DNA of 64,000 nucleotides from Candidatus Omnitrophota bacterium. GTDB lineage: Bacteria > Omnitrophota > Gorgyraeia > Zapsychrales > Fredricksoniimonadaceae. The stretch lies in assembly GCA_903860135.1 (NCBI GenBank), contig CAIOPG010000009.1, positions 111,805-175,804 of the forward strand, in the 5' to 3' direction. Made by a program: the position numbers and the translations under genes. This document shows, piece after piece, positions 20,086 through 36,188 of this stretch (the first letter of the stretch is position 1; every line of letters starts with the position of its first letter). Below the pieces are notes generated by a model. That model was given only the letters and a program-made list of their open reading frames with translations. It searched no databases and was not told where the DNA came from.

Positions 20086-20091
20086 AAGACT

Positions 20092-21600
20092 TTATAACTT
20101 TCTTTGTATGGCCACATGGTAGATCTGATATTTACCATGACCACCAAGATCTTTGGTAAAGACAGCTTCAAGGGTGATATCACCGAAAACCAAAATCTTT
20201 TTATTAAAATCAAAATTCATTACCTTCTGGACAGGACCTTTTGAATTCAAAACAACATACTCCGGTTGTTGGTCTTTTATAAAAGTTTCGAATGAACCTG
20301 CACTGTTTTGAAAAGAACTTTGGAAATATGTTGTCCCGATATCTTGATATCTTTCTTTGGGAAAGCCACTCTTGAGGATTATACTCTGCCAATAGACTGC
20401 AAAAGGATCCCAATCAATGAAGAAACATCTTCCTGAAGAAAGATTCTCCCGTAACCATCGCGATAAGTCATTAATATCTTCAGTTGAAACACTGTTCATA
20501 TAACGTAATGAAACGGATCTTGTTTGTGCAATATGATAAAAATTTATCAATAGCAATATCAGTAACAGACTGTATACCCACCACTTTTTTTGAAGAAAAC
20601 GATCGGAAATATGGTCGAATAAGAATACAGCATAGGGAATCAACAATAACCCAAGAATAAGGCTGTATTTTTCATGGTGCCATTGATGGGCAATAAATGA
20701 ATTGACAGATAATGATGTGAATCCAATAACGAAGAAGTATGCCAAAAACAACTTCTGTCCTGATAACTTGATCGAGGTGATCATCCCCAACAAACCACCT
20801 ATTAAAAATAAACCACCGGAACTGCGCCAAAGAACAGACAACCAGCTCCATAGAGAAGGATCATAAAAGATCTTTTTTTCCATGATCTCCATATTAGATG
20901 TTTGTGCCGAACGTTCAAAAGTATAAAATGGCAGATTAAACACAAAATAATTGAGGGCAAGCCATGCAACGGGTGCAATTAATAGAAGTCCTAAGAATAA
21001 TACAGAAGATTTCTTGTTTTTATTTAATAATATAAAAAAGAAAATAGGGATAAATAACCAGCATTCAAAACGTAATAGTGCCGCGATGTTAAAGGCTAAC
21101 GCCGATAAAATAAAAGACGAGGTTTTAGGCGTCTTAGAAATGTAATCAAGAAAGAAATATAATGCACTAAAAATAAAGAAATAATACATGGCCTCAGAAG
21201 TTGTAATGCAACTTTGAACAACATGTAATGGATAAAAAGCAAGGATCAAACACGAAAGGAAAGCAATGCGTTTAGAAAATATGACTTTAATACATCCATA
21301 AAAAGGCAATACCACGAGGATCCCAAATACAACAGTAATGATTTTAGGCAACAACATCGGATCTCGCCAAATAGATAAAAATATAGCCAAAAAATAAACA
21401 TACAGCATGGAACAATTGCCGTTGAAATTATGTCGAAATCCAGGGTAGTCAATCACTGACAAGGACTGTAAAACATTACTAATAGCAATCCCTGGCATAT
21501 TTTCATAACTTAGCAAACAAATCATACGGACCAGCATAGCCAGCAGGATCAACAATAAAATACGAAACTTCTCATTATTAAACCATACGAGTATTTTCAT
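20092..21600 (-). CDS. Polytopic membrane glycosyltransferase, GT-C fold (ArnT/PMT-like, GT39/83-like)
   Basis: About 11 TM helices with an AT-rich, low-complexity membrane-protein composition. The family call rests on architecture only. Confidence 0.5.
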   Translation of the reverse strand: MKILVWFNNEKFRILLLILLAMLVRMICLLSYENMPGIAISNVLQSLSVIDYPGFRHNFNGNCSMLYVYFLAIFLSIWRDPMLLPKIITVVFGILVVLPFYGCIKVIFSKRIAFLSCLILAFYPLHVVQSCITTSEAMYYFFIFSALYFFLDYISKTPKTSSFILSALAFNIAALLRFECWLFIPIFFFILLNKNKKSSVLFLGLLLIAPVAWLALNYFVFNLPFYTFERSAQTSNMEIMEKKIFYDPSLWSWLSVLWRSSGGLFLIGGLLGMITSIKLSGQKLFLAYFFVIGFTSLSVNSFIAHQWHHEKYSLILGLLLIPYAVFLFDHISDRFLQKKWWVYSLLLILLLINFYHIAQTRSVSLRYMNSVSTEDINDLSRWLRENLSSGRCFFIDWDPFAVYWQSIILKSGFPKERYQDIGTTYFQSSFQNSAGSFETFIKDQQPEYVVLNSKGPVQKVMNFDFNKKILVFGDITLEAVFTKDLGGHGKYQIYHVAIQRKL

Positions 21601-23081
21601 ATTGAAGAATGCGGATCAATGTTTTCTTTTTCTTTCAATGCAATATGAGGATTAAGTTTGGGTTGATTGACAATACTTTTACGCAACCCCATATCTTCGA
21701 CCATTTTTGAAAAACTGAACACTCTTTCGGCACGTGCGTCACGGTTAAGGCCGTTACTATCCACAAAAAGCATGGGATCCAAATCCCAGCTTAGGCCATA
21801 ACACGCTGTATTTTGCCCAATATCAGATTCAGGAAAAAGTGTAAACCCTGAAATATTTGTGACTTCAGAAATATAGGCCTTATTGCGACGCAAAAAGACA
21901 GCCACTTCATCCAGGTCATTCTTTGTTTCTCCTGGGAAACCGACAATGATATTAACATTTGTACAGATACCCGCATTATGGGACATCCGTAAAACATTCT
22001 CTATTTCACTAGGGGTATAAAATTTCTTCATCCTGGTAAGTATACTTTTGGCTACATGTTCCATGCCATAAATAAGGGTATGACAACCAGCCTTCTTCAT
22101 TTTCTCACACAACCGTTCGGTCATATCCGAACGGATCACCGCATAGCTCACCCAATTAAACTTTAATCCGGAATCAATGATCAGATCACACAAAGATTCC
22201 AGCAAACGTAAATTCCCGTTGCATAACAGGTCATTCCATTCAAAGGCTTTTGTTTTGTTGATCCGGCAATGGTACTCAATTTCACGAAAGGCATGTTCTG
22301 CTGAACGCGACCTGTATTTCGGCCAAAGGATATGATCAATGCAATACGAACACTTATTGATACAGCCGCGGGTTAACAATAAAGGTAAGGGTTTATAGTC
22401 ATTCCCATTATTGTATAATGAAAGATCAAATTCTTCATATGTTGGAAAAGGCAAAAGATCAAGATCAACGCAAGGGATCGCCGGGATAGGTGTGCCACGG
22501 CCTACTTCTTTGGCCGGAAAAATACCAGGTTCAAGTTCAATGCGTTCCCCTTTTTTTATACGTTTGATCAAGGACAAAAAAACCATTTCGCCTTCACCTA
22601 TGACAAAATAGTCTACGAATCCCGGTGTGATCAATTCTCTGGGATGTATAAAATATGTTGCCGCACCACCGAAAACGATAATACGGTTACTATCATACGC
22701 TTTGATATTTTCGGCCAGTTTATTGGCTAAGAAAATACTGACCATATTGACTGAAAAAGCAATGATCTTGACATCAGAGCGAATGACCCAAGCGATAAAA
22801 TCAAGTAACTCGCCGTTGAACTTATCAAATATAATGTCTGCTATTTCCGCTTGATAGAATGAATTGGTACTGTCCGGAGACCAAAGATCCTTAATATTAT
22901 CGACACTTTTGTTAAACAATAAAATATTCAGATCGACCAATTCAACAGAACACTGTTGTTGTTTCAAATATGCCGTTAAATACGCGGGACCTAAGGGGGG
23001 CATCTTTGTAAATAATGGCGGTGGAATGATCAGCAATACATCCTTACCATCAAGATGATAGCGTGAAAGATCCAATGACAT
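21597..23081 (-). CDS. B12-binding (class B) radical SAM enzyme
   Basis: An N-terminal cobalamin-binding-like Rossmann domain is followed by CINKCSYC (CxxxCxxC). Confidence 0.8.
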   Translation of the reverse strand: MSLDLSRYHLDGKDVLLIIPPPLFTKMPPLGPAYLTAYLKQQQCSVELVDLNILLFNKSVDNIKDLWSPDSTNSFYQAEIADIIFDKFNGELLDFIAWVIRSDVKIIAFSVNMVSIFLANKLAENIKAYDSNRIIVFGGAATYFIHPRELITPGFVDYFVIGEGEMVFLSLIKRIKKGERIELEPGIFPAKEVGRGTPIPAIPCVDLDLLPFPTYEEFDLSLYNNGNDYKPLPLLLTRGCINKCSYCIDHILWPKYRSRSAEHAFREIEYHCRINKTKAFEWNDLLCNGNLRLLESLCDLIIDSGLKFNWVSYAVIRSDMTERLCEKMKKAGCHTLIYGMEHVAKSILTRMKKFYTPSEIENVLRMSHNAGICTNVNIIVGFPGETKNDLDEVAVFLRRNKAYISEVTNISGFTLFPESDIGQNTACYGLSWDLDPMLFVDSNGLNRDARAERVFSFSKMVEDMGLRKSIVNQPKLNPHIALKEKENIDPHSSI

Positions 23082-23115
23082 AAATATTCTTTCCTTACAT
23101 AATAGAAAAATTTAT

Positions 23116-24222
23116 CTAACTTTTACAACAGCGGCCACAAACCTTAAGAGGTTCTTCTTTTATCATTTTTCTGAACTGTTGATAGCTCTTTGAATGCCAT
23201 ATGACTTCCAAAGAGTCTTTGCGGATATTGCCAAACACACAGCATGTTAGAAATTGACACGGTAGAATATCGCCATTATGATTGATAAAAACAGAGTGGG
23301 ATATGAATCGGCAATGATTTTTCCGTAGCGGGTTATCGCTATACCAATCACGCATCTGTTCATCCGTCAGATGCGGTTTCATATATACAGGCAAGTCCGC
23401 ATACTGAAGAAGCCGCCTCAAATGAAGAACTTTATTGATAAAACCTTCCGGTAAATTCTTCTCGAGCAAAAAGATTTCCGGCTTTAAATCAAGGCCATTA
23501 ACAATAAAAGGGATCGATCGGGCATATTCAGCTGGAGTCATAAAATTAAATTGTTCTATCTTGATTGAATCAACTCCTATCAAACGTAAATCAACGAATA
23601 AAGACGGTAATGAAGCAATATTTTCAGGCAACGGGATACAGCTGACCATAATACGCATGCCTGTGCGTTTATTCTTGATCAACCGTTTTAAATTTTCTAT
23701 TGTTCGATCAAATGCGCCTGTGATGCCTACAACTTGATCATGAATTTCACGAGTGCCATACAGCGACACGATCAAGATATCCACATATTTCAAAGCAGAT
23801 ATTAAACTATCACCGTGCAGAAGAGATCCGTTGGTCGTCAACATGCATTTAAGACCATTTTGCTTGATGCAAGCTAATATATCATTAAAATCTTTACACA
23901 TAAACGGCTCACCACCGCTAAAATGTACTACCGACTGAAATTTCCTGATACTTCCAATGAAATTCTTAATTGTTAGTAGATCCATACTTTGAATTGGCAC
24001 ACAATCATTTGAACGCTTGAGCGTTGAAACACACATCCGGCACACATAATTGCATTTTAAAGTTATCAGAAAGTTAATAGTTAAGGGGAAGTTTGTCGGT
24101 TGCCCGCTAAGAAAGTTGATCGCTCCGGTAAAAATATTTCTTGGGATAAAGACATAACGGTAGAGTTTATAAATGAGCAGATTAGATAAGAATGAATTAA
24201 ATATCTGATTAAGAAAGTTCAT
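23116..24222 (-). CDS. Radical SAM enzyme with a C-terminal Cys-rich SPASM/twitch-like domain
   Basis: It has CNYVCRMC and FSGGEPFM (SAM glycine-rich motif), plus a C-terminal CQFLTCC ... CGRCC cluster. Confidence 0.75.
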   Translation of the reverse strand: MNFLNQIFNSFLSNLLIYKLYRYVFIPRNIFTGAINFLSGQPTNFPLTINFLITLKCNYVCRMCVSTLKRSNDCVPIQSMDLLTIKNFIGSIRKFQSVVHFSGGEPFMCKDFNDILACIKQNGLKCMLTTNGSLLHGDSLISALKYVDILIVSLYGTREIHDQVVGITGAFDRTIENLKRLIKNKRTGMRIMVSCIPLPENIASLPSLFVDLRLIGVDSIKIEQFNFMTPAEYARSIPFIVNGLDLKPEIFLLEKNLPEGFINKVLHLRRLLQYADLPVYMKPHLTDEQMRDWYSDNPLRKNHCRFISHSVFINHNGDILPCQFLTCCVFGNIRKDSLEVIWHSKSYQQFRKMIKEEPLKVCGRCCKS

Positions 24223-24229
24223 AAAAAGA

Positions 24230-25924
24230 TTACCTGATAATCAGAAAGTTATTCAAAACTAAAACATCCAGAGCGCACTCGTTGAACGAATGTAAGGCAT
24301 CCTGAAATGAGCATACGATAGGTTCTTCATGCCTGTTAAAACTTGTGTTTAATACTGTCGCTACGCCTTTCTTTTGTTCATATTTCTCAAGTATCCTGTA
24401 TATTCTTGGATTATCAGCCATTGACACGATCTGGGGGCGTGCTGTGCCATCAATGTGAGCAGCGGCAGGACATAGATCCTTTAATCTGTCCGTTCCATCA
24501 ACAGCAAAAGTCATAAATTTCAAAGCATACGTCATGTTATCGATACCCTTATAAAAACCTGCCGCCTCCCTATCAAGGCTTATGGGAGCAAACGGCATAA
24601 AAGAAGAACGATCCATTTTTTTGTTTAACCATTCCATGGCGGATACATCATCAGCCCTGTATAGAATAGAACGATTCCCCAGAGATCGCGGACCAAACTC
24701 CATTCGCCCGTTAAAATGACCTACGGTACATCCTTGGGCCAACAAATCCGCTACGCGCGCACACAAAGAGTCTTCTTCCAGAAAAGTAAATGTTACTTTT
24801 TCATTGTCCAGAAATGATCGAATATCAGCATTATCATATTGCGGGCCAAGATAAACATTCCTAAAACAAAAAGGTTCCGGCTTTAGGAATGCCAACCCGG
24901 CACCAACAGCCAACCCACCATCACCCATGTGCGGAAATACGTAAACATTTTCTATTTTTTTAACGTCTTTGATCCGATGATTGAGACTAACATTAGCGGC
25001 AATGCCCCCGGCCAACGCAACCCTGAATATATCTGTTTTGGCAACCCAATATGAAACGAACTTTACTATTTCATCTTCAAAGTTCTTTTGAAAATTAAAG
25101 GCTACGTCTTCTCTGGAATAGCCCTTTAACTGTTTGTACACACCACTTTTCATGGATTCTGGAATGAAATGATTCTTCCAGTTAAAACCTTCGGTCTTTT
25201 TGATAAAGCTTAAACTGGATTTAGCAACAGCCATTATATCTTCATTAAAACGACCAAAAGATGCCAAACTCGTGATCTTACCTTCATGTCTTAACGCCAT
25301 AAACCCGAGAAATTCAGTCAACCTTTGGTAATAAGTACCGATCGCACTAAAACCTGACTGTTCATAAATACGTTTAAGTTCATTGCCATAACCAATATTA
25401 ACCGTCACACTGACACCATCACCCATGGCATCAAGCGTGAACACCAGCGTTTTTTCATTGTTTCCACTCGAATAATAGGCACCTGCCGCATGGGCTTCAT
25501 GATGATCAATGCAATGAACCGGGGCATGAATACCCAAACGACCAAGGCGAAAAGCTATGATCTTGCCTGAAAGGAATGCTTCTATACGCTCAGGGAACCT
25601 CATGTGCCGCAAAGTTACCTGATAAATAATATACAGATTCAATAAAAAACTAAATTGTGATTCTCTTTCTCTTAGACCGCTATGCCACGAAGGTAAAAGA
25701 CGCAGCATACTGGCAGGTGTCATGCGCGATGCCAGCAAAACGTGGTCAACGGTTGACGGGAGAATGCCTGTATGCTGTAAACATGCTTGTATCGATAATA
25801 GGGGAAAGCCACCTTGAAGCTTATGCCTGGTCAACCGTTCCTCATTCACAGCAAAAAGTAATTCATGATCTCTAAAAATACAGGCACCACTATCATGATT
25901 ATCAGAAATGCTTAGTGTGATCAT
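24230..25924 (-). CDS. Carbamoyltransferase (NodU/CmcH/TobZ family)
   Basis: It has an N-terminal Kae1/YgjD-like ASKHA domain (LSISDNHDSGACIF ... VNEERLTRHK) plus a C-terminal carbamoyltransferase domain. The 564-aa length fits. Confidence 0.75.
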   Translation of the reverse strand: MITLSISDNHDSGACIFRDHELLFAVNEERLTRHKLQGGFPLLSIQACLQHTGILPSTVDHVLLASRMTPASMLRLLPSWHSGLRERESQFSFLLNLYIIYQVTLRHMRFPERIEAFLSGKIIAFRLGRLGIHAPVHCIDHHEAHAAGAYYSSGNNEKTLVFTLDAMGDGVSVTVNIGYGNELKRIYEQSGFSAIGTYYQRLTEFLGFMALRHEGKITSLASFGRFNEDIMAVAKSSLSFIKKTEGFNWKNHFIPESMKSGVYKQLKGYSREDVAFNFQKNFEDEIVKFVSYWVAKTDIFRVALAGGIAANVSLNHRIKDVKKIENVYVFPHMGDGGLAVGAGLAFLKPEPFCFRNVYLGPQYDNADIRSFLDNEKVTFTFLEEDSLCARVADLLAQGCTVGHFNGRMEFGPRSLGNRSILYRADDVSAMEWLNKKMDRSSFMPFAPISLDREAAGFYKGIDNMTYALKFMTFAVDGTDRLKDLCPAAAHIDGTARPQIVSMADNPRIYRILEKYEQKKGVATVLNTSFNRHEEPIVCSFQDALHSFNECALDVLVLNNFLIIR

Positions 25925-25943
25925 ACGATCAACTCAAAAAATG

Positions 25944-27458
25944 TTAGGTAGCCGAACGATTAACCAATGAAATTTCTTTGTTACTATTGGATGTCTCAAC
26001 AACAGCACCAAAAGCAGAAAATGCCTTGTTGATTTCGCTAAAAGAAAGTCGTTGCAACTGATAAAGGAACTGTTTGGGGCGAAAATAAAATTCCCGGATC
26101 GCCTTCTTTTGAAGAAGCCTGAGTTTCTCTGCTGTTAATCCAGGCGTCACCCAAATAGGAACCTGTCCCGTAAAAGCAATATATGAAGAATACCTTTGCC
26201 AAACAGAAGTATCCAAAGTTCCATCCGCCCTCACCCCGGTATCAATTTCACCCTTGCTCGATAACTCATGAAACATGGGAGAGCCTGGGTAAGGAACAAA
26301 AATACTGAATTGTGCCATATCCAAAGGTAATTTTTTGGCGAAAGCGATGGTCTGCAGTGAATCCTGGTACGTTTCTCCAGGTAAACCCAGAATAAAAAGA
26401 CCGCCAATAACGATCCGTGTGTGTTTCTTGACCAAGGCAATGCTGTATTCTATATCAGCCAAATTGGTACCTTTATTAACACGTTCTAATAAGCTTTGCA
26501 CGCCGGATTCAATGCCAAAAGACATATCATGACAACCGGCAGACTCCATGGCACGGATCATCTCGGTGTCGATGCAATTAACATGCGCTTCACACCCCCA
26601 ACGGAATTTAAGTTTTGACTCCTTGATCTTATGGCAAAGCTCAAGTGTTCTCTGTTTATCAACCGCGAAGATAGGATCCATGAAGAAAATGTAATTGGTC
26701 TTGTATTGTTCAATAAGCACCTGTATTTCTTCCAAAACCTGGGGAATACTATAATGCCTTCGCCCATGATGCTTTTGTACAGCACAAAAAGCACAGTTAA
26801 ACGGACAGCCTCGCGACGTGAACATATGTTTGGCAACACGTCCCAGGCGATAACTGTAGGGCATATTGGTAATGTTGGGGAAATTGTAAAGTTTGGGATC
26901 AAGCATATCTCTGGCAGGAAGAGGCAATGATGCCAAATCTTTTACAAGAGCACATTCTGTAGGTGGACGATAACAACCATTTAACAAAAGGGATAAAGAA
27001 GGAATGTCTGCCAAACTGCTTTTATCTTCAATCTGTTTGATGATCCTTACAAATACTTCTTCCCCATCGCCATGAACCACACAATCAGCACAGCCACTTC
27101 TCAAGTAAGCTTCTGCGTAGGCTCCTGCGTGTACATTGCCCAATACCACGAAAATACCAGGGCAGTTTTGTTTTACCCATCGACCGATCTCAAAAACAAC
27201 TTCTCCATTGGAAATAAAAGAAGTCAGTCCGATCACATCCGGTTTTGTTTTTACAATAAAGTCTTTTACCATCTCATTAGAAAACTTGGCAGCAAAAGCA
27301 TCCAGAACTTTTACATCATAACCGGATTGTCTGATATATGCCGCTATCGAGAGTAACCCCAGCGGTTCCAGAACAGGCATAAATTGAGAGCCTTTGCCTA
27401 AGAAATTTTGCAAATCATCGGGTGGATTAATCAATAATATCTTTAATGGTTTAATCAT
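25944..27458 (-). CDS. B12-binding (class B) radical SAM enzyme
   Basis: An N-terminal B12-binding-like domain is followed by TSRGCPFNCAFCAV. Confidence 0.8.
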   Translation of the reverse strand: MIKPLKILLINPPDDLQNFLGKGSQFMPVLEPLGLLSIAAYIRQSGYDVKVLDAFAAKFSNEMVKDFIVKTKPDVIGLTSFISNGEVVFEIGRWVKQNCPGIFVVLGNVHAGAYAEAYLRSGCADCVVHGDGEEVFVRIIKQIEDKSSLADIPSLSLLLNGCYRPPTECALVKDLASLPLPARDMLDPKLYNFPNITNMPYSYRLGRVAKHMFTSRGCPFNCAFCAVQKHHGRRHYSIPQVLEEIQVLIEQYKTNYIFFMDPIFAVDKQRTLELCHKIKESKLKFRWGCEAHVNCIDTEMIRAMESAGCHDMSFGIESGVQSLLERVNKGTNLADIEYSIALVKKHTRIVIGGLFILGLPGETYQDSLQTIAFAKKLPLDMAQFSIFVPYPGSPMFHELSSKGEIDTGVRADGTLDTSVWQRYSSYIAFTGQVPIWVTPGLTAEKLRLLQKKAIREFYFRPKQFLYQLQRLSFSEINKAFSAFGAVVETSNSNKEISLVNRSAT

Positions 27459-29391
27459 GCATGATTTCCTTAAGGTTAAAGATCAACGCATCGATCTCTT
27501 CGGCAGTGGTCCATTTGCTCAAACTTATGCGCATAGCCTGCAGGGCCTCATCAAGGGAACGACCCATCGCCAATAAAACACTGCTGGGGATCAAGACGCG
27601 CGAAGAACAAGCCGCTCCTGTAGCAATATAGATCCCGCGCTGATTTAATTGCGTGACAATATCTTTACCACTTCTATTCTTGAAGGAAATATTTATATTA
27701 TTGCAAAGTCTGTTATGGGCAGGACCATTCAATTGTGCACTATCAAAATCTTGCGTTAAACGTGAAATACAGTAATCCCGCAACTGTGCGATTTGACTGA
27801 TGTGTTCTTCCTGCGCGATATCAACAGCTTTCCCAAATCCCGCAATGCCATGGACATTATATGTACCCGAACGTAAATCTTGTTCCTGACCACCCCCATG
27901 CAAAAGCGGTGCCATGGAGATCCCTTTACGAACATATAATGCACCGACACCGCCCGGGCCATAGATTTTATGGGCACTAAGACTGACCATATCCAATTTT
28001 TGTTGTTGAACATTCAATTCAACTTTGGTGAAACTCTGGCACGCATCAACATGAAAGGCTACACCATTCTGGCGGCAAATTTCTCCAATAGCGGCAACAG
28101 GTTCAATGGTCCCAATCTCATTATTGGCATGCATGATCGAAACAAGGATCGTATCTTTCCTTATCAATCGAAGAACTTCGTCAGGATCAATAAAGCCCTC
28201 AGCGTTGACGCCAACGACTGAAATATTAAATCCAAAATTCTTTAACCATACCGCAGGCGCCATAACACTGGGATGTTCTATCGCGGAAATTATAATGTGC
28301 CTTCCCTCGCCTTGATGAGCAAAAGCAAATCCTTTAATGGCAAAATTATTAGATTCAGTACCGCCAGATGTAAAAATAACTTCGTCCGGCTCGGCATTGA
28401 TCCTTTTGGCAATCTCGGTACGCACATCCTCAATAATTTTCTTTCCTTGTATGCCGCGTTCATGCGACGCAGAGGCATTACCAACATACACTTGCTGTAA
28501 ATGCGCCATGACTTTAATAACTTCCGGGTCAAGTTTGGTCGTCGCATTATTATCAAAATAAATCGACGTCGGCACTGTCAATTGCACCTGTTTTCTTGTC
28601 AGTGAATGACGCAAAGAAGAAAATCTTTGTGTATCATGAGCAAAGAACTTATCAGATATATAATTCAAATAACCATATTTCAAGGTACAACAACCACCTT
28701 GTTCCTTAAAAATAACTTTTAACGGCAATCGCAATAAATTAAAGACAAGGCTCATCAGACACGACGGTTGCGTGCTTCTATACTGACTATATAACCCCTT
28801 ACCTAATTCTATGCCCAAACTTTTTAGAAAGACAACCCTGTTTTCCGTAGAATCCTTGTATAAACCTATAAATCTTAATAAAGAAATAATTTTATTATTA
28901 TTTAACGAATGTACGGATTCATCGTAATAATTTGGCGCGACTATCATTATTCCGTAAGTTTTATAAATTTCAGCCAACAATCCTTTTACATCTTTATGCT
29001 GCTCTAAAGCATGGGAATCATAGAAATTGCTTCCATCAAGGACACAGTCAATCCCCTGCGCTTTACAATATTTGATTGTATACATATGCATGGCACACTT
29101 GCAACCCAAACACCAGGAATAAAGGAATTTATATTTTAAATTATCCAATACACACCGTAAAGGGCCGCCTCTACTGGAGGTAATAAATTTTCGTATATCT
29201 ATGATGTGATGTTCAAGCTTATGACCGTATATTCTTTGTAATTGTAGAAAACTTCGAGATGAAAATTTTTCATTGATCATACCCGGGACAAGGTAAGTGA
29301 TCAGGACGAGTTTGTCATATTTATCGACACTCTTAACCACCGTATATGTTGAATCAACACCTCCGGAAAACAATACAACCGCAGTATTCAT
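27451..29391 (-). CDS. Fusion protein: N-terminal PP-loop ATP pyrophosphatase (QueC/TtcA/ThiI-like, SGGxDS) + C-terminal class-V aminotransferase-fold cysteine desulfurase (NifS/IscS-like)
   Basis: The N-terminus has VVLFSGGVDSTY and a CLGCKC cysteine motif. The C-terminal ~380 aa have IFTSGGTESNN, the AHKIYGPGGVGALYVR PLP-lysine region, and a catalytic-Cys-loop-like ATGAACSS. Confidence 0.75.
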   Translation of the reverse strand: MNTAVVLFSGGVDSTYTVVKSVDKYDKLVLITYLVPGMINEKFSSRSFLQLQRIYGHKLEHHIIDIRKFITSSRGGPLRCVLDNLKYKFLYSWCLGCKCAMHMYTIKYCKAQGIDCVLDGSNFYDSHALEQHKDVKGLLAEIYKTYGIMIVAPNYYDESVHSLNNNKIISLLRFIGLYKDSTENRVVFLKSLGIELGKGLYSQYRSTQPSCLMSLVFNLLRLPLKVIFKEQGGCCTLKYGYLNYISDKFFAHDTQRFSSLRHSLTRKQVQLTVPTSIYFDNNATTKLDPEVIKVMAHLQQVYVGNASASHERGIQGKKIIEDVRTEIAKRINAEPDEVIFTSGGTESNNFAIKGFAFAHQGEGRHIIISAIEHPSVMAPAVWLKNFGFNISVVGVNAEGFIDPDEVLRLIRKDTILVSIMHANNEIGTIEPVAAIGEICRQNGVAFHVDACQSFTKVELNVQQQKLDMVSLSAHKIYGPGGVGALYVRKGISMAPLLHGGGQEQDLRSGTYNVHGIAGFGKAVDIAQEEHISQIAQLRDYCISRLTQDFDSAQLNGPAHNRLCNNINISFKNRSGKDIVTQLNQRGIYIATGAACSSRVLIPSSVLLAMGRSLDEALQAMRISLSKWTTAEEIDALIFNLKEIMHD

Positions 29392-29437
29392 ATTGACTCC
29401 CTGTCAATTTGTAAAATACGGCATTTAAGTATGAAAT

Positions 29438-30358
29438 TCACAAAATATTCCTGATAAAATATGTTTTCTTTTTCTCATAATAGATACGCATGGTTATTTC
29501 AGCAATAAGACCCATCAGGATCAACTGCAACCCAATAATCGAAAACATAACAAAAAGAAACAATAATGGACTAACCCATATGCCATTATAAAATACTTTC
29601 CTTATAATAATGATTAAACCAACACAGAAAGAAAGAAATATCAAAGAAATACCGCATCCTCCAAAAATATACATAGGCTTATTCAAATAATTATTAATGA
29701 ATTCTGCGACAAAGAAATCCAGGATCAATCGAAAAACACGCGACAACCCATATTTCGACTTTCCTGCAATACGTTTGCGATGCGACACAGCTATTTCAGC
29801 GACTAACCCACCTTGCCTGGCGACATAAATCACCATAAGGCGATGCATTTCACTATATAAACGAAAACGTTCAAATACAACCTTGCGATAGGCTTTAAGC
29901 GTACACCCCACATCATGCAATTTTATACCGGTGATTTTAGAAATTAATAAATTTGCCAGGTAGGAAGGTACCTTTCGGATAAGGAAGGGGTCTTGTCGGC
30001 TCTTGCGCCAGCCACTCACAACATCAAAACCTTCTTCAAGTTTAGCCAATAAGGATGGTATATCTTTGGGATCATTTTGAAGATCGGCATCAAAGAATAC
30101 CAGAACCTCACCTGAAGCATGATCGATGCCGGCCTGCATCGCTTCTGTCTGGCCAAAATGACGCGTAAATTCTATAACACGAATATGAGAATAATCAGTT
30201 CTAATTTGTTTTAATACCGATAAACTATGATCAACACTCCCATCATCAACATAAATGATCTCATACGGCCCTATCATCTTCAAGGCATTAACGATTTCCT
30301 CTTGCAAGACGGGCAAATTAGCTTCTTCATTATAAACAGGGATAATAATTGAAATCAT
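29438..30358 (-). CDS. GT2 polyprenyl-phosphate sugar synthase (DPM1/ArnC/GtrB-like) with C-terminal TM helices
   Basis: It has IIIPVYNEEANLP and YEIIYVDDGSVDHS, plus a C-terminal hydrophobic pair. Confidence 0.8.
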   Translation of the reverse strand: MISIIIPVYNEEANLPVLQEEIVNALKMIGPYEIIYVDDGSVDHSLSVLKQIRTDYSHIRVIEFTRHFGQTEAMQAGIDHASGEVLVFFDADLQNDPKDIPSLLAKLEEGFDVVSGWRKSRQDPFLIRKVPSYLANLLISKITGIKLHDVGCTLKAYRKVVFERFRLYSEMHRLMVIYVARQGGLVAEIAVSHRKRIAGKSKYGLSRVFRLILDFFVAEFINNYLNKPMYIFGGCGISLIFLSFCVGLIIIIRKVFYNGIWVSPLLFLFVMFSIIGLQLILMGLIAEITMRIYYEKKKTYFIRNIL

Positions 30359-31518
30359 AGTGTGTATACCTTTTCAAGACGCTTCACAAGGTTGCGCCAG
30401 TTATATGTATCCTCCGCTCGTTTTCGTGCAGCCATAGACATTTGATAACGTAGTTCAGGATTAACCGCCAGCTTCAGGATCCCCTTTGCCATTTCACCAG
30501 GGCTTCCTGGGTGAACCAGTAAACCGGCCTCACCCAACATATTTCTGACTTCGCCCACATCACTGGCTACGATCGGCTTTCCAGCTGCCATATACTCAGC
30601 GATCTTCAATGGGCTTTTACAACGCGTGACTTTATTGTCTTCAAAAGGAGCCACACAAATATCAGCCGCAGCAATATATTCAGGAATATCAATATAGGGG
30701 ATAAAATCAGTAAAAAGAACTTTATCCTCAAGACAAAGTTCAATGGCATTTGCACGCAAGGCTTCAAGCTCTGAACCACTGCCGGCGATCATAAGTTTTA
30801 TGGTCAAATTGACATTTTCTTGCTCAATAAGCTTAAAGACCTGTAAAAGGATCTTTACATATTGGCAAGAATGCAACTGGCCATGATAAAAAACAACAAT
30901 GGAATCGCAAAGATCATGCTTCTGGCGGATATTTTCAGCCTTACGGCCGAAATGAAAGCGTGTTAGATCTGCGCCAACGGGGATCAAAACTACTTTTCTT
31001 TCATTAGCTCCCCGCTTGACAGCTAACTTCCTCAATAACTCACTCGATACACTAACACTATCCGCGAGGAAAGGGAGTGTATGTTCCATTAAAAAAAATG
31101 AAAACCATACTAAGATCGATGTGGGTGACCTTTGGGGGATAGCGCATTCAAATATCTTTTCTTCCCTATCATCCCAGTCATAATGAAGTGGTTTGCAGGC
31201 CATCAATGCCGCTAGAATTGCCGGGATCGAAGCGTAAAAATGCGCTTTCTGAAGATGAATGATATCTACTGTACGCGCAAATTTATAAAGCACCGCCGTA
31301 TTCTTGATGAATGACCTTATAGAAATCTTTCTGTTGAGAGGAATAATATAAACACCGCGAATGGTGTCACGGTAATGCATTTTCATAGGAAAGTATGCCA
31401 AAGTAACCGTGTGATCATGATAAACCAGTTCTTCGGCGAATTTCTTAATACGGATCGTCCATGGTTCCATGGGCGAATATAAATCATGAGGATGGATCAT
31501 TAAAACTTTCATCATCAA
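30355..31518 (-). CDS. Glycosyltransferase family 4 (GT-B)
   Basis: The C-terminal GT4 signature EGFGLPLLEAM is present as a variant (SPLKIAEYMAAGKPIVASDVGEV). Confidence 0.75.
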   Translation of the reverse strand: MMMKVLMIHPHDLYSPMEPWTIRIKKFAEELVYHDHTVTLAYFPMKMHYRDTIRGVYIIPLNRKISIRSFIKNTAVLYKFARTVDIIHLQKAHFYASIPAILAALMACKPLHYDWDDREEKIFECAIPQRSPTSILVWFSFFLMEHTLPFLADSVSVSSELLRKLAVKRGANERKVVLIPVGADLTRFHFGRKAENIRQKHDLCDSIVVFYHGQLHSCQYVKILLQVFKLIEQENVNLTIKLMIAGSGSELEALRANAIELCLEDKVLFTDFIPYIDIPEYIAAADICVAPFEDNKVTRCKSPLKIAEYMAAGKPIVASDVGEVRNMLGEAGLLVHPGSPGEMAKGILKLAVNPELRYQMSMAARKRAEDTYNWRNLVKRLEKVYTL

Positions 31519-33158
31519 CCACCTGGAAAAACAATGGTTTTACGGAAGAACTTTATCGTTTGTAAACAACCAGTAAGAAAGAAATGATACCCGGCTAATA
31601 AAAATATTAGCGGGAGAAACAGTAACCGTCTGAAAAATATACGCCGGGAAGCTTTTATGATATGCGTATTATTTTGTAATATTCTCTGGGCATTCAGTGG
31701 ACTTTCTCCGTCATAAATACCGATAAAATTCGTCTGTATACTTAATCCGCGCAAGAATTCGTAGATCTCTTTTATGCGCTGTTTTCTAATGAAAGGCGTA
31801 TTCTTGCCATCTAATGTTTCCCATGCTTCACACGCATCTTTCCCAGGCGGACAAACAATGCTGAATTTCTCGGGGAATATTTCAAGGTCGGTCAAAGCAG
31901 TAATATGGCATGGATTAAGGCTAGACACGGTATCCAGATGATCACGAATTTCTTCCAGATTTTTCTTTGTAAGCTGGAAATCCTGTTCTGTTTCGCCAGG
32001 AAAGCCTATGATCAGATTGATCCATGTATTGATACCGGCTTTTTTTGTGTTTTCTAAAACCACGTTGATATCAGCAAAACAGAATGGTTTCCCCATCATC
32101 TTCAGTACATTGTCAGACAAACTCTCAACACCATAAATGATGGTTGTCATGCCAGCCTGTTTTAATTTACGCAACAAGGCGGGCTTCATGTCTGTCCGAA
32201 CAATGCCCTGGGCCGTCCAATGAATAGTTAAGCCTGCGGCCATAATAAGATCTGCCAATTCGTCGAGGACATTCAGGTTCCCATTAAATAATAAATCATT
32301 ACAACGAAAAGTCTTCTTGCCTAAATGATCGCGCACTGTTTTCATCTCTTCAAAAATATTTTTTGCCGAACGGAAACGAAAACGAGCATCCCACATCCGC
32401 CAATCATTACAAAAAGTACAGCGATTGACACACCCCCGGCTGAATAGAATAGGCATTTCTCCCTGGACATCATACTTCTTTAATGGGAATTTATGCCAGG
32501 CAGGAAATGGGAGTGTATCAAGATTGGAGATACAGGGGGCTTGCTCGATCTTGCCATAATTCCCTGTAACCACAGGAACAATACCCGCACGTTTAACTGG
32601 ACGATTGGCAATACATGCAGAAACTATTTCAAAGAAAGATTCCTCCCCTTCTCCGGCAACGATAAAATCAACAACGCCCTCAGGCAGTAATGATGCCGCA
32701 TGATGGTTGGAGGTCAAAAAACGAAAAGGCATAGGATTTTCATGCAAAAAGCAGCACGAAGAACCGCCAAAAACAATACGGATATTCTGTGCCTTCTCGC
32801 GTAAAGCTTTAGCCATTTCAATCGAAAAAAGAATATTAGCCCCATGGAGCGAAAACCCTACAATCTTAAATTTCTTATCAATAATATTCTGAACGGCTGA
32901 CTGAATAGCCGTCGAAAACTTTTCTTTGATAAATGGGAACATATTTTCTTGAGACCAAAGATGAAAGTTCTCCATCTGCCATAATCGGCGGTCTTCTGTG
33001 CCGGCAGAAGAATACAATGAAATATTTAGATCCATCACATCGCACAAAATGCCTTTATGCTCAAGATACGCGGCAATATAAGCAATGCCGATGGGCGGAA
33101 GACATGTTCCCCACATAGGACAGATCACCAGCAGAACATCTCTGGATAACGGCATCAT
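31515..33158 (-). CDS. B12-binding (class B) radical SAM enzyme
   Basis: It has FSRGCVNRCTFCND plus an N-terminal B12-binding-like domain. Confidence 0.8.
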   Translation of the reverse strand: MMPLSRDVLLVICPMWGTCLPPIGIAYIAAYLEHKGILCDVMDLNISLYSSAGTEDRRLWQMENFHLWSQENMFPFIKEKFSTAIQSAVQNIIDKKFKIVGFSLHGANILFSIEMAKALREKAQNIRIVFGGSSCCFLHENPMPFRFLTSNHHAASLLPEGVVDFIVAGEGEESFFEIVSACIANRPVKRAGIVPVVTGNYGKIEQAPCISNLDTLPFPAWHKFPLKKYDVQGEMPILFSRGCVNRCTFCNDWRMWDARFRFRSAKNIFEEMKTVRDHLGKKTFRCNDLLFNGNLNVLDELADLIMAAGLTIHWTAQGIVRTDMKPALLRKLKQAGMTTIIYGVESLSDNVLKMMGKPFCFADINVVLENTKKAGINTWINLIIGFPGETEQDFQLTKKNLEEIRDHLDTVSSLNPCHITALTDLEIFPEKFSIVCPPGKDACEAWETLDGKNTPFIRKQRIKEIYEFLRGLSIQTNFIGIYDGESPLNAQRILQNNTHIIKASRRIFFRRLLFLPLIFLLAGYHFFLTGCLQTIKFFRKTIVFPGG

Positions 33159-35893
33159 TATTTCACCATTCTGGCTATGCTTTTGAATAAAAACTTCTGA
33201 AAAGGAGATAATGATTTAAGGTGTTGTTTGACGATCATATTCCTGCCGATATCATCACAGCTTTTATAACAACCCGTCTTACAGTTTTCATCATTACCAA
33301 TGAAATTAAAGAAATTATCATCTTTGTTGGAACTTAATGCTTTTTGACGGAATTCACATTGTTGTTGAGAATTCCATATCTCATGAAAAGAATGCTTGTA
33401 TATGTTACCTACAGGCATACGATGCGCTTTTAAACAAAAGTTAACATCCCCATCGGACATGATCCGGCTGAAAACCCATCCCACATAACATGGAGAATCC
33501 GCAAGCAAACCACTATCATATTGAGCATCCTCAGCTCCTGAATCAGAAATTCGACGCATAAAATGCTCAAGGTTACTCACGATGACCCGTAATGTCTTGG
33601 CTTGAATACGACGGCACTGTTCAAGAACAGCTTCGCGCTGGTCTTTATTTAGGATTAAACTATCGGTAGCATCAGGGATCGTATCAACAACAGTAAATTC
33701 AACACACTCGGATCGCGTCTGCTCGGCAAAATCAACCATTTGTTCAACTTCCATAAAATTCAAGTTAGAAATCACATTATAAATCTTTACACGCGGGCCA
33801 CGATGCTTTTTAAGTGAATTAAGCATTGTTAACGTGGACTTTAAACGATAAAAGGTTGCTTCGTCTTTGTTGGGATGGGTCAGTACATACGTTTGTGGCG
33901 TAGCCGCCCATATGCTGACAGTCATCTCGTCCAAACCCATATAAATAAGCCGCCTCACGACGATCTCATTGACAAGGGTAAAATTGGTATTGACACAACA
34001 GTGCATCCCTCTATGTTTGGCATGTCCGAGGATTTGGAGTATATCCGGATGCATAAATGGTTCACCACCACCAGAGAAAAACAACTCACGGGTGCCCAGC
34101 TGAGCCAATTCATCAATAATGCTTTCGGCAAGATATAAGGGGATAGTCTTGTGACGCCGGGCCCCGGTATACTGACGATCACGCAATAACGGGGAATTAC
34201 ACCAACAACTGACACAATTATTATTGCACTTACTGGTTAGATCAATCTGAACGCAATCTGGCCCCTTGAAAGCACGTGAGCCGTGGTATATCCCCAGAAT
34301 ATTAAGTATATTCTTTTTTATTTTCTTTAATATTACTTCCTTCGTACGCCAGAATGTTTTCAAATGAATGCCCATGGCTTTAACTTTGATGCGCACGCGT
34401 GATACAGCGCTTGAAACACCTAGAACACCATGTACACGAATATACACAAACAATCGTCTCAGCATCTTGTAAAGATCTTGGTGCATCCAATGGCCTTGCC
34501 ACTTATTCAAATATTCTTGGAACGAAGATAACTGTCGAGGCCTTGTTTTGTACACATGCGCCAGCCATATCGTATCCGCCGTTCTCTTGGCTTTCTGGAG
34601 ATCAGTAGCACTCATATGTTCGGTCCTGAGCATCGAACGCGCATTGCCGTCGTAATCGTTCAAATTACGCGAAACCACAAAACCTTTTTGCAATAGTTCG
34701 TCGAAATAACTCGTGCCAGGAAAAGCCGTGTTTATCGAAAATTGTAACGAATCAGGATCGAGCGATAATGCCAGGTCAATGGTTTTCTTTACTGTCTGAC
34801 GGGTTTCTCCGGGCAGACCAAAAGAAAATGTCAAATGAGTCTTTATGCCTATGGCTTTTGTAAAACGGATCATTCTTTCTGCCTTGACAATATCCAGTCC
34901 TTTGTTGATATTATCAAGAAGTTGCTGGTCAGCCGATTCGACTCCATATTTGATCGCCTCAAGTCCCGCCGCGCGTAAGGCCAGAAGGATATCTTCATCC
35001 ATGATATCGGCACGCGCCATCATGGCCCAGGGAACATTTAATCCCCGGCGCAGGATTTCTTTTGAGAATTCCATCATTCTCAATTTCCCGATATTAGCTG
35101 TGTCATCGTCGAAGTAAATCGACTTAAATCCCTTTTGACGGACAAGAAATTCCATCTCGTCAACGACATCCTTGATGCTGCGCGTCCGGTATCGACGTGT
35201 GCCATACATCAACTGGGGCCAGACACAGAAAGAGCAATGATAGGGACAGCCTCGTGATGCCCACATCTGCACACTGGGCAACGGTATGCCTCCAGGCGTA
35301 TCATTATATTTATGCATGGGCAAACCATCGCGCGCAGGCCATGGCAGATCATCAAGATGCTCAAGTAATGGACGCACCGGATTGATCATGACATGAGCTT
35401 TATCGCGCCAGATCAACCCTAAAACACCTGTCCCGTCTTTCTTGGTAGAAAGCCTGCGAACAAGTTCAAGCAATGTAATTTCATACTCACCTTGCAGGAC
35501 ATAATTTATACGGGGATTTCTTTCAAGAAAACCAGTGGTACGAATATTTATTTCCGGGCCACATAACGCTACCGGCAAGTCCTTGGGAATACGATTAAGA
35601 ATATGGAGGTCATTGTCGAGAGATGGCGCGGATGTCTCACCTACCAATAGATCCCATCCGCCGGAAACAACCGTTTGGATGAATTTAGCGACAGGCATTT
35701 CATCAGCTAAAGCATCCAGAACTGTAACCTCAAAACCTTGTTGCTTCAAAAGAGCTGCGGCATACGCCATGAAAAAAGGGTATGGCAAATATTTTTTTTC
35801 TTCGGCTGTCTTGATGTGCGGCCAACGAGATCCAGCCCGCACGCCCCAGTAACGCCCTTTTTTCCAAGGGAAGTTGGCCAAAAGGATTTTCAT
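33158..35893 (-). CDS. Double radical-SAM fusion: B12-binding rSAM domain + second rSAM domain with a SPASM-like Cys cluster
   Basis: The N-terminal half has ASRGCPYHCSFCVW. The C-terminal half has LTSKCNNNCVSCWC, FSGGGEPFM and a terminal cysteine cluster. The C-terminal half is homologous to the 23116..24222 protein. Confidence 0.8.
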   Translation of the reverse strand: MKILLANFPWKKGRYWGVRAGSRWPHIKTAEEKKYLPYPFFMAYAAALLKQQGFEVTVLDALADEMPVAKFIQTVVSGGWDLLVGETSAPSLDNDLHILNRIPKDLPVALCGPEINIRTTGFLERNPRINYVLQGEYEITLLELVRRLSTKKDGTGVLGLIWRDKAHVMINPVRPLLEHLDDLPWPARDGLPMHKYNDTPGGIPLPSVQMWASRGCPYHCSFCVWPQLMYGTRRYRTRSIKDVVDEMEFLVRQKGFKSIYFDDDTANIGKLRMMEFSKEILRRGLNVPWAMMARADIMDEDILLALRAAGLEAIKYGVESADQQLLDNINKGLDIVKAERMIRFTKAIGIKTHLTFSFGLPGETRQTVKKTIDLALSLDPDSLQFSINTAFPGTSYFDELLQKGFVVSRNLNDYDGNARSMLRTEHMSATDLQKAKRTADTIWLAHVYKTRPRQLSSFQEYLNKWQGHWMHQDLYKMLRRLFVYIRVHGVLGVSSAVSRVRIKVKAMGIHLKTFWRTKEVILKKIKKNILNILGIYHGSRAFKGPDCVQIDLTSKCNNNCVSCWCNSPLLRDRQYTGARRHKTIPLYLAESIIDELAQLGTRELFFSGGGEPFMHPDILQILGHAKHRGMHCCVNTNFTLVNEIVVRRLIYMGLDEMTVSIWAATPQTYVLTHPNKDEATFYRLKSTLTMLNSLKKHRGPRVKIYNVISNLNFMEVEQMVDFAEQTRSECVEFTVVDTIPDATDSLILNKDQREAVLEQCRRIQAKTLRVIVSNLEHFMRRISDSGAEDAQYDSGLLADSPCYVGWVFSRIMSDGDVNFCLKAHRMPVGNIYKHSFHEIWNSQQQCEFRQKALSSNKDDNFFNFIGNDENCKTGCYKSCDDIGRNMIVKQHLKSLSPFQKFLFKSIARMVK

Positions 35894-35897
35894 AAAC

Positions 35898-36188
35898 TCA
35901 CAGGCCCCTCACTTTTTGATCAACAAGATCCCTGATCTCCTGCTTTAAAGCGTTAGCATATTGTCCGGAACGTTCCATATTGGAAAGGATCCTGGCAAAG
36001 TCATGTCGAATTTCAAATATCAACTGCCCCATGATGGCCAATAGCCTTAATAAAAACCAGCTAATAAAGCTTCCAAAAACCATCAACCAGAAAGATAACA
36101 TCATCGGTGTAAAGAAAAATACGGCCATGAAGATACCTGCCGCTAAAAGGATGTGCGCGAATAATTTGATGTAACGTGTTGTTCTCAT
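35898..36188 (-). CDS. Small two-TM membrane protein
   Basis: Its start and stop abut the flanking genes and it has two hydrophobic helices. Function is unknown. Confidence 0.45.
   Translation of the reverse strand: MRTTRYIKLFAHILLAAGIFMAVFFFTPMMLSFWLMVFGSFISWFLLRLLAIMGQLIFEIRHDFARILSNMERSGQYANALKQEIRDLVDQKVRGL

Follow-up and report, generated by a model that had tools for sequence, protein, structure and literature searches.

Related systems and the locus under study

Radical S-adenosylmethionine (rSAM) chemistry is familiar from antibiotics, cofactors, lipids, and ribosomally synthesized and posttranslationally modified peptides (RiPPs), and the Omnitrophota are a phylum of mostly uncultured, partly host-dependent nanobacteria. 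Described here is a stretch of 64,000 nucleotides (nt) from a Candidatus Omnitrophota bacterium (contig CAIOPG010000009.1, positions 111,805 to 175,804), which as a whole is called the window, carrying an O-antigen-like glycan locus of about 24 kb with six rSAM modules. Two of these form a single two-headed protein of 911 amino acids (aa), named FUS, with the halves FUS_N and FUS_C; B12_A, B12_B, and B12_C each join an rSAM core to a B12 (cobalamin)-binding domain, and the sixth module is a stand-alone rSAM-SPASM protein. The region is read, with a probability of roughly 0.55, as the tailoring part of an operon for a lipid-linked glycan exported by the ATP-binding cassette (ABC) transporter Wzm/Wzt, the rSAM enzymes modifying the glycan before export. 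The enzyme superfamilies and the kind of export pathway are known, while the conserved rSAM core, its modular fusions, and a domain shared between Wzt and rSAM proteins, here called WFD, are new.

The ABC-dependent O-antigen pathway, as represented by WbdD/Wzt of Escherichia coli O9a and by WzmWzt of Aquifex aeolicus (PMC9445017), shares with the locus a WecA-type initiation, cytoplasmic assembly on a polyprenyl carrier, Wzm and Wzt, the presence of an extra C-terminal domain on Wzt, and a protein of the Wzy_C/ligase family. In contrast to the O9a-type Wzt, the extra domain of the window family consists of two to five tandem galactose-mutarotase-like supersandwiches and not of a canonical carbohydrate-binding domain, and it is also found fused to tailoring enzymes. 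The conserved neighbor is an rSAM fusion instead of a kinase/methyltransferase or a 3-deoxy-D-manno-octulosonate (Kdo)-transferase terminator.

By analogy of gene content, the accessory genes of the locus have their closest chemical precedent in the moenomycin tailoring set. That set reportedly includes the carbamoyltransferase MoeM5 and the AsnB-type amidotransferases MoeF5 and MoeH5, as Ostash et al. are said to have described in 2009. Shared by type are a B12-rSAM protein, a NodU/CmcH-type carbamoyltransferase, an AsnB-type amidotransferase, and glycosyltransferases working on a lipid-linked sugar chain, a likeness of gene type. The moenomycin C-methylase MoeK5 is a B12-rSAM enzyme (PMC9204698). 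The window, by contrast, holds a locus for a cell envelope polymer, with Wzm/Wzt; among its six rSAM modules are SPASM types, which are not known from moenomycin biosynthesis.

Single enzymes offer further comparisons. HpnJ (hopanoid cyclitol-ether formation) and AprD4 (aminoglycoside biosynthesis) both act on sugar rings and have the Rossmann-plus-rSAM architecture of FUS_N and of B12_B, but the setting here is a polysaccharide locus and FUS_N is fused to a second rSAM module. The sugar-acting rSAM enzymes DesII, BtrN, and BlsE, which are partly of the twitch/SPASM kind, combine an rSAM core with a cysteine-rich auxiliary-cluster domain as do FUS_C and the stand-alone SPASM protein, although the similarity is at superfamily level only (E values of 1e-5 to 1e-7). 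In archaea, the SPASM and B12-rSAM pair Gms/Hbs plus Hgm makes glycerol monoalkyl glycerol tetraether (GMGT) lipids (PMC11214058). This pair also presents a co-clustered B12-rSAM and SPASM/twitch rSAM with one membrane-bound substrate, but it lies in lipid neighborhoods, with neither a fusion nor a link to an exporter reported. No description of a conserved rSAM core in a Wzm/Wzt polysaccharide pathway was found in the literature searched, and a 2026 preprint on Omnitrophota mentions radical SAM solely among the Pfam modules of giant proteins.

A glycan export operon with six rSAM modules

Between 42749 and 18196, 17 genes run in one direction on the - strand, most of them overlapping or separated by very short gaps. 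A PF01061 permease, a PF00005 ATPase whose best NCBIfam models are of the TagH/Wzt type, and a PF00953 initiating transferase lie together in this operon, which is thus one for ABC-transporter-dependent, polyprenyl-phosphate-linked glycan assembly in an Omnitrophota-type bacterium. The rSAM genes and the genes upstream of them are as follows, with the sources of evidence in parentheses (PDB, Protein Data Bank; AF2, AlphaFold model).

41568-42749, - strand: GT4 glycosyltransferase, conserved upstream gene
40591-41583, - strand: WecA/MraY-family polyprenyl-phosphate sugar-1-phosphate transferase, conserved upstream gene
39285-40601, - strand: flavin adenine dinucleotide (FAD) amine-oxidase-family oxidoreductase, conserved upstream gene
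38515-39288, - strand: Wzm ABC-2 permease (Pfam)
36188-38518, - strand: Wzt-type ABC ATPase, 776 aa, with a coiled-coil and two WFD copies
35898-36188, - strand: 96-aa hydrophobic protein between wzt and FUS
33158-35893, - strand: FUS, 911-aa two-headed rSAM protein (Pfam, NCBIfam, PDB search, AF2 model, Foldseek)
31515-33158, - strand: B12_C, 547 aa, B12-binding plus rSAM, TsrM/PoyC-like type (Pfam, NCBIfam, paralogue BLAST)
30355-31518, - strand: GT4a, GT4-family glycosyltransferase, conserved downstream partner of the FUS and B12 genes
25944-27458, - strand: B12_B, 504 aa, B12-binding plus rSAM (Pfam, NCBIfam, PDB hit)
23116-24222, - strand: stand-alone rSAM-SPASM protein, 368 aa (Pfam, NCBIfam, homologue search)
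21597-23081, - strand: B12_A, 494 aa, B12-binding plus rSAM (Pfam, NCBIfam, paralogue BLAST)

An earlier note on this DNA, made from the letters alone, had listed the five rSAM genes. The list of open reading frames (ORFs) and Pfam confirm their coordinates, their domains, and their common - strand, and all the motifs that it quoted are present in the translations (ASRGCPYHCSFCVW, LTSKCNNNCVSCWC, FSGGGEPFM, FSGGEPFMCKDF...GLKCMLTTNG, and GMHCCVNTNF). Pfam finds Radical_SAM and B12-binding domains in B12_A (64.8 and 39.0 bits), B12_B (67.4 and 67.8 bits), and B12_C (74.3 and 43.0 bits), and Radical_SAM and SPASM domains in the 368-aa protein (50.4 and 53.3 bits). FUS has Radical_SAM at 118 bits over two stretches, SPASM at 40.1 bits, and B12-binding at 26.9 bits. 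Both SPASM matches pass the PF13186 cutoff of 21.5, and the B12-binding matches of B12_A, B12_B, and B12_C all exceed the PF02310 gathering score of 32.1. The B12-binding match of FUS is below this threshold, with a Rossmann-like fold nonetheless present, so that of the four class B modules proposed earlier, three stand by this measure and that of FUS does not.

Six CxxxCxxC motifs were found, beginning at C240, C57, C218, C243, C216, and C556, and each lies at the start of an rSAM core. The first five fall within PF04055 stretches with E values of 1e-13 to 1e-34, and C556 lies in the second Radical_SAM stretch of FUS, where NCBIfam radical-SAM/SPASM models align from about residue 543 to 550 onward. 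The 368-aa protein aligns with FUS over residues 545 to 850 (327 columns, 22% identity, E value of 4e-6). The two SPASM proteins are therefore homologous and the cysteine motifs sit inside rSAM cores, contrary to both of the objections that the earlier note had foreseen to its own proposal.

All-against-all BLAST divides the four "B12" modules into two subfamilies, with B12_A and B12_C 32% identical, B12_B and FUS_N 29% identical, and values of 22 to 29% across the groups. None of the five rSAM proteins reaches the cutoff of any NCBIfam model. For B12_A and B12_C the best model is TIGR03975 (RiPP C-methyltransferase), at 113.2 and 129.6 bits against a cutoff of 281.85, and NCBIfam and the PDB sequence search place these two weakly nearer to methylases of the TsrM/QCMT/PoyC type. 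The HpnJ model TIGR03471 (cutoff of 577.6) scores 241.8 bits with FUS and 144 bits with B12_B, and the AprD4-family model NF033070 (cutoff of 500) scores 110.8 bits with FUS_N and 123.6 bits with B12_B. Because all the curated scores are far below their cutoffs, no reaction or name can be transferred by homology.

The best PDB sequence match of B12_B is AprD4 (E value of 1.5e-29), whereas those of the 368-aa protein are DesII, BtrN, BlsE, and viperin. The latter protein carries the cysteines C304, C322, C327, C328, C362, C365, and C366. B12_C, whose start overlaps the FUS stop by 1 nt, ends in a hydrophobic helix at residues 511 to 535, LLFLPLIFLLAGYHFFLTGCL (approximately 31515-31650), which suggests that this rSAM enzyme may be anchored to the membrane. 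The SPASM modules also matched GDGT-MAS (7TOL) weakly, with E values near 1e-4, and a ladderane-type B12-rSAM NCBIfam model was likewise among the weak matches.

Structure and relatives of FUS

FUS is composed of an HpnJ/AprD4/BchE-like Rossmann and rSAM module, FUS_N (residues 1 to ∼450, nt 34544-35893, C216-x3-C-x2-C), a helical linker of low model confidence (residues ∼451 to 540), and an rSAM plus SPASM/twitch-like module, FUS_C (residues ∼541 to 911, nt 33161-34273, C556-x3-C-x2-C). For FUS_N, the best NCBIfam model is HpnJ, followed by BchE, and the best PDB sequence match is AprD4 (E value of 4e-34). The AlphaFold model of FUS (pLDDT [predicted local distance difference test] of 85.5) superposes on the entire AprD4 chain (PDB 6FD2), with a Foldseek TM-score of 0.80 normalized to the AprD4 length and an E value of 2.5e-24. 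This high fold similarity does not establish membership of the AprD4 family. AprD4, which dehydrates the 1,2-diol of a sugar, binds no cobalamin despite its Rossmann-like domain (PMC12931638), and for HpnJ the contraction of a lipid-linked glucosamine ring has been proposed (PMC9204698). The label "class B (B12)" is therefore unproven for FUS, given both the subthreshold Pfam match and a best structural match that binds no cobalamin.

The nearest solved relatives of FUS_C are DesII, BtrN, BlsE, and viperin (PDB sequence search, E values of 1e-5 to 1e-7), so that both halves of FUS have nearest solved relatives that act on sugars, namely AprD4 and DesII/BtrN/BlsE. Four auxiliary cysteines of FUS_C (802, 820, 875, and 879) are invariant in the fusion family, while C846 and C871 are not, and FUS_C thus looks more twitch-like than a full SPASM module, in which seven cysteines serve two auxiliary clusters. 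One putative auxiliary [4Fe-4S] cluster is likely, and a second is uncertain.

FUS stands in a genuine Rosetta-stone relation to orthologous modules that are split, or fused with other partners, in other genomes. In locus L042, a 732-aa ORF with FUS_N and WFD precedes a separate 431-aa FUS_C ORF, with 3 nt between the two. A triple fusion in the order FUS_N-B12_C-FUS_C occurs in P0004 and in L028 (a single 1,458-aa ORF), and residues 575 to 1065 of P0004 are 56% identical to the window gene for B12_C and represent its orthologue. FUS is extended by an appended A/C-type module in P0092 and P0106 and by a second SPASM module in P0032, P0035, and P0039. That the two modules are fused in most relatives and encoded by adjacent separate genes in others supports their functional coupling.

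The earlier note had taken B12_A and the 368-aa SPASM protein for the same two modules unfused and had proposed that such pairs carry out an obligate two-enzyme chemistry. For the two modules of FUS a coupling of function finds support; the reading of the separate pair as their unfused form does not. The genes of the pair are adjacent, with a gap of 34 nt, one relative with 57% SPASM identity keeps their order, and they belong to the same superfamilies as the halves of FUS. Their identity to those halves is nevertheless only 27% and 23%, and B12_A is TsrM/PoyC-like whereas FUS_N is HpnJ/AprD4/BchE-like and has its closest window paralogue in B12_B (29% identity). The family of the stand-alone SPASM protein is small: a word-indexed search retrieved 53 homologues (263 to 610 aa), and none of these carries a B12 domain. 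Its orthologues elsewhere adjoin an AsnB-type amidotransferase, a PMT_2 protein, or a B-type rSAM more often than an A-type rSAM. That the pair would be an obligate unit equivalent to FUS is thus largely refuted and very improbable.

Wzt and the WFD domain

The window Wzt consists of a 240-aa ATPase, a predicted coiled-coil rich in Gln, Glu, and Arg (residues ∼245 to 335, approximately nt 37500-37800), and two tandem repeats of WFD, a domain of about 200 to 215 aa (residues 341 to 560, nt 36839-37498, and residues 561 to 776, nt 36191-36838; - strand). The repeats are 31% identical to each other (E value of 1e-7) and have no Pfam match. Their fold is a galactose-mutarotase-like beta-supersandwich of a sugar-binding type, and a canonical C-terminal carbohydrate-binding domain was not found on Wzt. 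The coiled-coil brings to mind the one that serves as a ruler in the O9a terminator WbdD.

The domain was recovered by BLAST and a hidden Markov model (HMM) run against FUS relatives and loci and by an exhaustive profile search. The HMM finds WFD on the Wzt ORF in 32 of the 36 loci having Wzt, in one to five copies, and on an rSAM ORF in 45 of 80 loci. The rSAM carriers are FUS-type proteins, FUS_C-like SPASM proteins (two to three copies), and A/C-type B12 proteins. The domain also occurs on a PMT_2 protein and as stand-alone ORFs just upstream of FUS. In longer FUS relatives of about 1,150 to 1,230 aa it forms an N-terminal extension, and in those of about 1,400 aa it is inserted exactly in the linker between FUS_N and FUS_C and appears again at the C terminus. 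The exhaustive search of 1.84 billion representative proteins retrieved 647 carriers with up to nine copies each; a word-indexed homologue search with the C-terminal part of Wzt retrieved two proteins only.

The 96-aa protein has a long hydrophobic stretch (residues 5 to 60) consistent with two membrane helices and is kept between wzt and FUS in the 12 closest loci; FUS itself bears no WFD in the clade nearest to the window. It never co-occurs with a WFD on or before FUS_N (12 versus 42 loci), and it may represent an alternative tether to WFD.

A conserved core cassette

Synteny was assessed by tblastn of the window proteins against 80 fetched loci. The recurrent order is GT4, WecA-like transferase, FAD oxidoreductase, Wzm, Wzt, small protein, FUS, A/C-type B12-rSAM, GT4, and ArnC-like GT2, followed by AsnB or carbamoyltransferase, SPASM, B-type rSAM, and PMT_2. 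Its core, found in hundreds of genomes, comprises Wzm, Wzt, the small membrane protein or WFD, FUS, an A/C-type B12-rSAM, and GT4. Of 51 loci with a flank of 5 kb or more, 34 have Wzt upstream of FUS and on its strand, and Wzm lies upstream in 35 of 80 loci. Downstream of FUS, GT4a and an A/C-type B12-rSAM are each present in 28 of the 45 loci with enough flank. Loci of at least 15 kb hold a median of 5 rSAM modules and a maximum of 10. The density of radical enzymes that had been called unusual is so by comparison with textbook O-antigen loci, but within this locus family it is the norm.

One relative carries the same accessory block as the window, whereas another, with 76% FUS identity, keeps the core and has a block of GDSL, TPR, PMT_2, GT9, and another rSAM in its place. 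The stretch at 30355-42749 is therefore the conserved part of the locus, and that at 18196-30358 is variable.

A pattern scan that covered a single genome for each species gave 510 FUS-family matches confirmed by tblastn, mostly in Candidatus Omnitrophota and otherwise in some DPANN archaea, Margulisiibacteriota, Elusimicrobia, and others. FUS relatives, mostly from Candidatus Omnitrophota, are annotated merely as "radical SAM protein." FUS genes were also seen in metagenome-assembled genomes (MAGs) labeled Woesearchaeota/Nanoarchaeia (DPANN), Margulisiibacteriota, Patescibacteria, Caldisericota, and Calescamantes (L021, L025, L038, L065, L069, and others), which may point to transfer between the Omnitrophota and small-celled archaea or to binning errors. 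In L004, L005, L042, and L069, FUS is followed by tandem arrays of six to eight rSAM-SPASM paralogues (approximately 13 to 23 kb, locus coordinates), with up to 10 rSAM modules in 23 kb.

Possible substrates of the rSAM enzymes

In the reading favored here, the rSAM enzymes would act in the cytoplasm on the lipid-linked glycan and not on soluble nucleotide-sugars. FUS_N, being HpnJ/AprD4-like, may abstract hydrogen from a sugar C-H bond, leading to rearrangement, dehydration, or methylation, while the DesII/BtrN-like FUS_C, with one or two auxiliary clusters, may oxidize, deaminate, or decarboxylate, the two heads working in sequence on the same sugar residue. The TsrM/PoyC-like modules of B12_A and B12_C would most likely C-methylate. 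The C-terminal domains of Wzt in known systems read the modified glycan terminus (PMC9445017), and by analogy the WFD repeats of Wzt probably recognize the modification made by the core enzymes, coupling tailoring to export. The hydrophobic helix of B12_C, the lack of nucleoside diphosphate (NDP)-sugar genes in the operon, the sugar-acting relatives, and the synteny with Wzm/Wzt all argue for this reading. Several points weigh against it: no curated family score comes near its cutoff, the synteny counts rest on tblastn against truncated MAG contigs, the window FUS itself carries no WFD, and the mutual exclusion of the 96-aa protein and WFD on FUS tracks clade boundaries. Cobalamin use is not given by the sequence, the best structural match of FUS_N being AprD4, which does without it; the chemistry and the products of the cassette enzymes are predictions only; and the substrates of DesII, BlsE, and viperin are nucleotide-linked, as would fit a precursor pathway as well. 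A more specific version, which is tentative, takes the FUS cassette for an rSAM system of chain-end tailoring or termination, in which FUS and its B12-rSAM partner would modify the nonreducing end of the lipid-linked polymer by a C-C or C-H-level reaction, giving as candidate products a C-methyl, deoxy-keto, or ring-contracted (carbocyclic) sugar, and the galactose-mutarotase-like domain on Wzt and on the enzymes would read this end and gate export.

In such a precursor pathway, the rSAM enzymes would make a C-methylated, deoxy, or epimerized monomer from soluble nucleotide-sugars before polymerization. The solved relatives of the SPASM-type modules include DesII, acting on a thymidine diphosphate (TDP)-sugar, BlsE, acting on cytosylglucuronate, and viperin, acting on cytidine triphosphate (CTP), and some related loci hold NDP-sugar epimerase/dehydratase genes (L082). 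In the window operon, however, Pfam finds no NDP-sugar pathway genes, including any nucleotidyltransferase or 4,6-dehydratase gene, the core cassette is tied to wzm-wzt and not to sugar-activation genes, and the hydrophobic helix of B12_C speaks against a soluble pathway. Because the domain on the exporter ATPase is also found fused to rSAM relatives, a lipid-linked polymer is the likelier substrate and the precursor pathway is unlikely; the earlier proposal of a sugar or nucleotide-sugar substrate is supported for the sugar by the sugar-acting relatives and weakened for the nucleotide-sugar. Tailoring of membrane or carrier lipids by a B12-rSAM and rSAM-SPASM pair, as by Gms/Hbs and Hgm, is a good deal less probable still: that pairing is known for GMGT synthesis and methylation, Hbs homologues are present in Omnitrophota (10.1101/2023.10.20.563219), and the weak GDGT-MAS and ladderane-model matches given above point the same way, but sugar-acting enzymes outscore GDGT-MAS, WFD has a carbohydrate-enzyme fold, and the operon holds no lipid synthesis genes (tes, mss, or grs), all its neighbors being glycan genes. 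Least probable of all is RiPP maturation, in which PoyC-like C-methyltransferases, SPASM maturases, and an AsnB-like cyclase would act on a small peptide exported by the ABC transporter. TIGR03975 as best model for B12_A and B12_C, AsnB homologues that include lasso cyclases, and small ORFs adjoining FUS would agree with it. The TIGR03975 scores are nevertheless less than half of the cutoff, the transporter is of the Wzm/Wzt polysaccharide type with no peptidase, and the locus also holds WecA, five glycosyltransferases, and a Wzy_C protein. A RiPP precursor was sought between wzt and FUS, where the sole ORF is that of the hydrophobic, membrane-type 96-aa protein, which is unlike a leader-core peptide.

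Accessory and flanking genes

The accessory block at 18196-30358 holds B12_A, the SPASM gene, and B12_B together with the genes below; the last two entries are those at the upstream edge of the locus.

29438-30358, - strand: ArnC-like polyprenyl-phosphate glycosyltransferase (GT2), accessory block
27451-29391, - strand: PP-loop plus cysteine desulfurase fusion, accessory block
24230-25924, - strand: NodU/CmcH-type carbamoyltransferase, accessory block
20092-21600, - strand: PMT_2 GT-C glycosyltransferase (ArnT-like), accessory block
18196-20085, - strand: AsnB-type amidotransferase, accessory block
42798-43967, + strand: Wzy_C/O-antigen-ligase-family membrane protein, upstream edge
43804-44835, - strand: GT2 glycosyltransferase, upstream edge

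In the favored reading, this block would build a carbamoylated, amidated, and C-modified side sugar on a polyprenyl-phosphate carrier by means of the ArnC-like GT2, and the PMT_2 GT-C enzyme would add this side sugar after export.

The product of 27451-29391 (646 aa) has an N-terminal domain of about 270 aa with a SGGxDS PP-loop motif and a CxxCxC motif, which gives merely marginal matches to QueC, LarE, and asparagine synthetase domains, joined to a C-terminal NifS/IscS-type cysteine desulfurase (416 bits). This composition suggests a candidate for ATP-dependent sulfur insertion in a glycan operon, for example into a thiocarboxylate or thio-sugar. None of the 80 fetched loci has a counterpart, and a 645-aa version is present in the P0122 contig.

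The two edge genes are syntenic in L002, L035, and the P0002 contig. In the window they are convergent, with an overlap of 164 nt at 43804-43967. The locus forms a low-GC island (about 18000-46000, with 36 to 46% GC compared with 50 to 53% in the flanks), and the flanks carry the housekeeping genes for SecA, RecN, PFK, PdxJ, FolP, FtsH, and TilS. Just outside the island, a 1,152-aa tri-domain protein (14277-17735, - strand) combines a major facilitator superfamily (MFS) transporter, an acyltransferase, and an AMP-binding enzyme and resembles an LplT/Aas-like lysophospholipid recycling fusion. Neither end of the operon yielded promoter or terminator matches beyond those expected from shuffled sequence.

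Implications for Omnitrophota envelope chemistry

The cassette offers a testable way into the envelope chemistry of the Omnitrophota and opens the study of multiheaded rSAM enzymes whose modules are shuffled between genomes, and the new domain family WFD physically links tailoring enzymes to an exporter. Should the chain-end version hold, O-antigen terminators and Wzt recognition domains would each gain a new class, typical of the Omnitrophota and of some DPANN archaea. If the products are C-methylated, deoxygenated, or carbocyclic polymer sugars, they would enlarge the chemical space known for bacterial glycans, and the enzymes that make them would be new biocatalysts for the C-H functionalization of carbohydrates.

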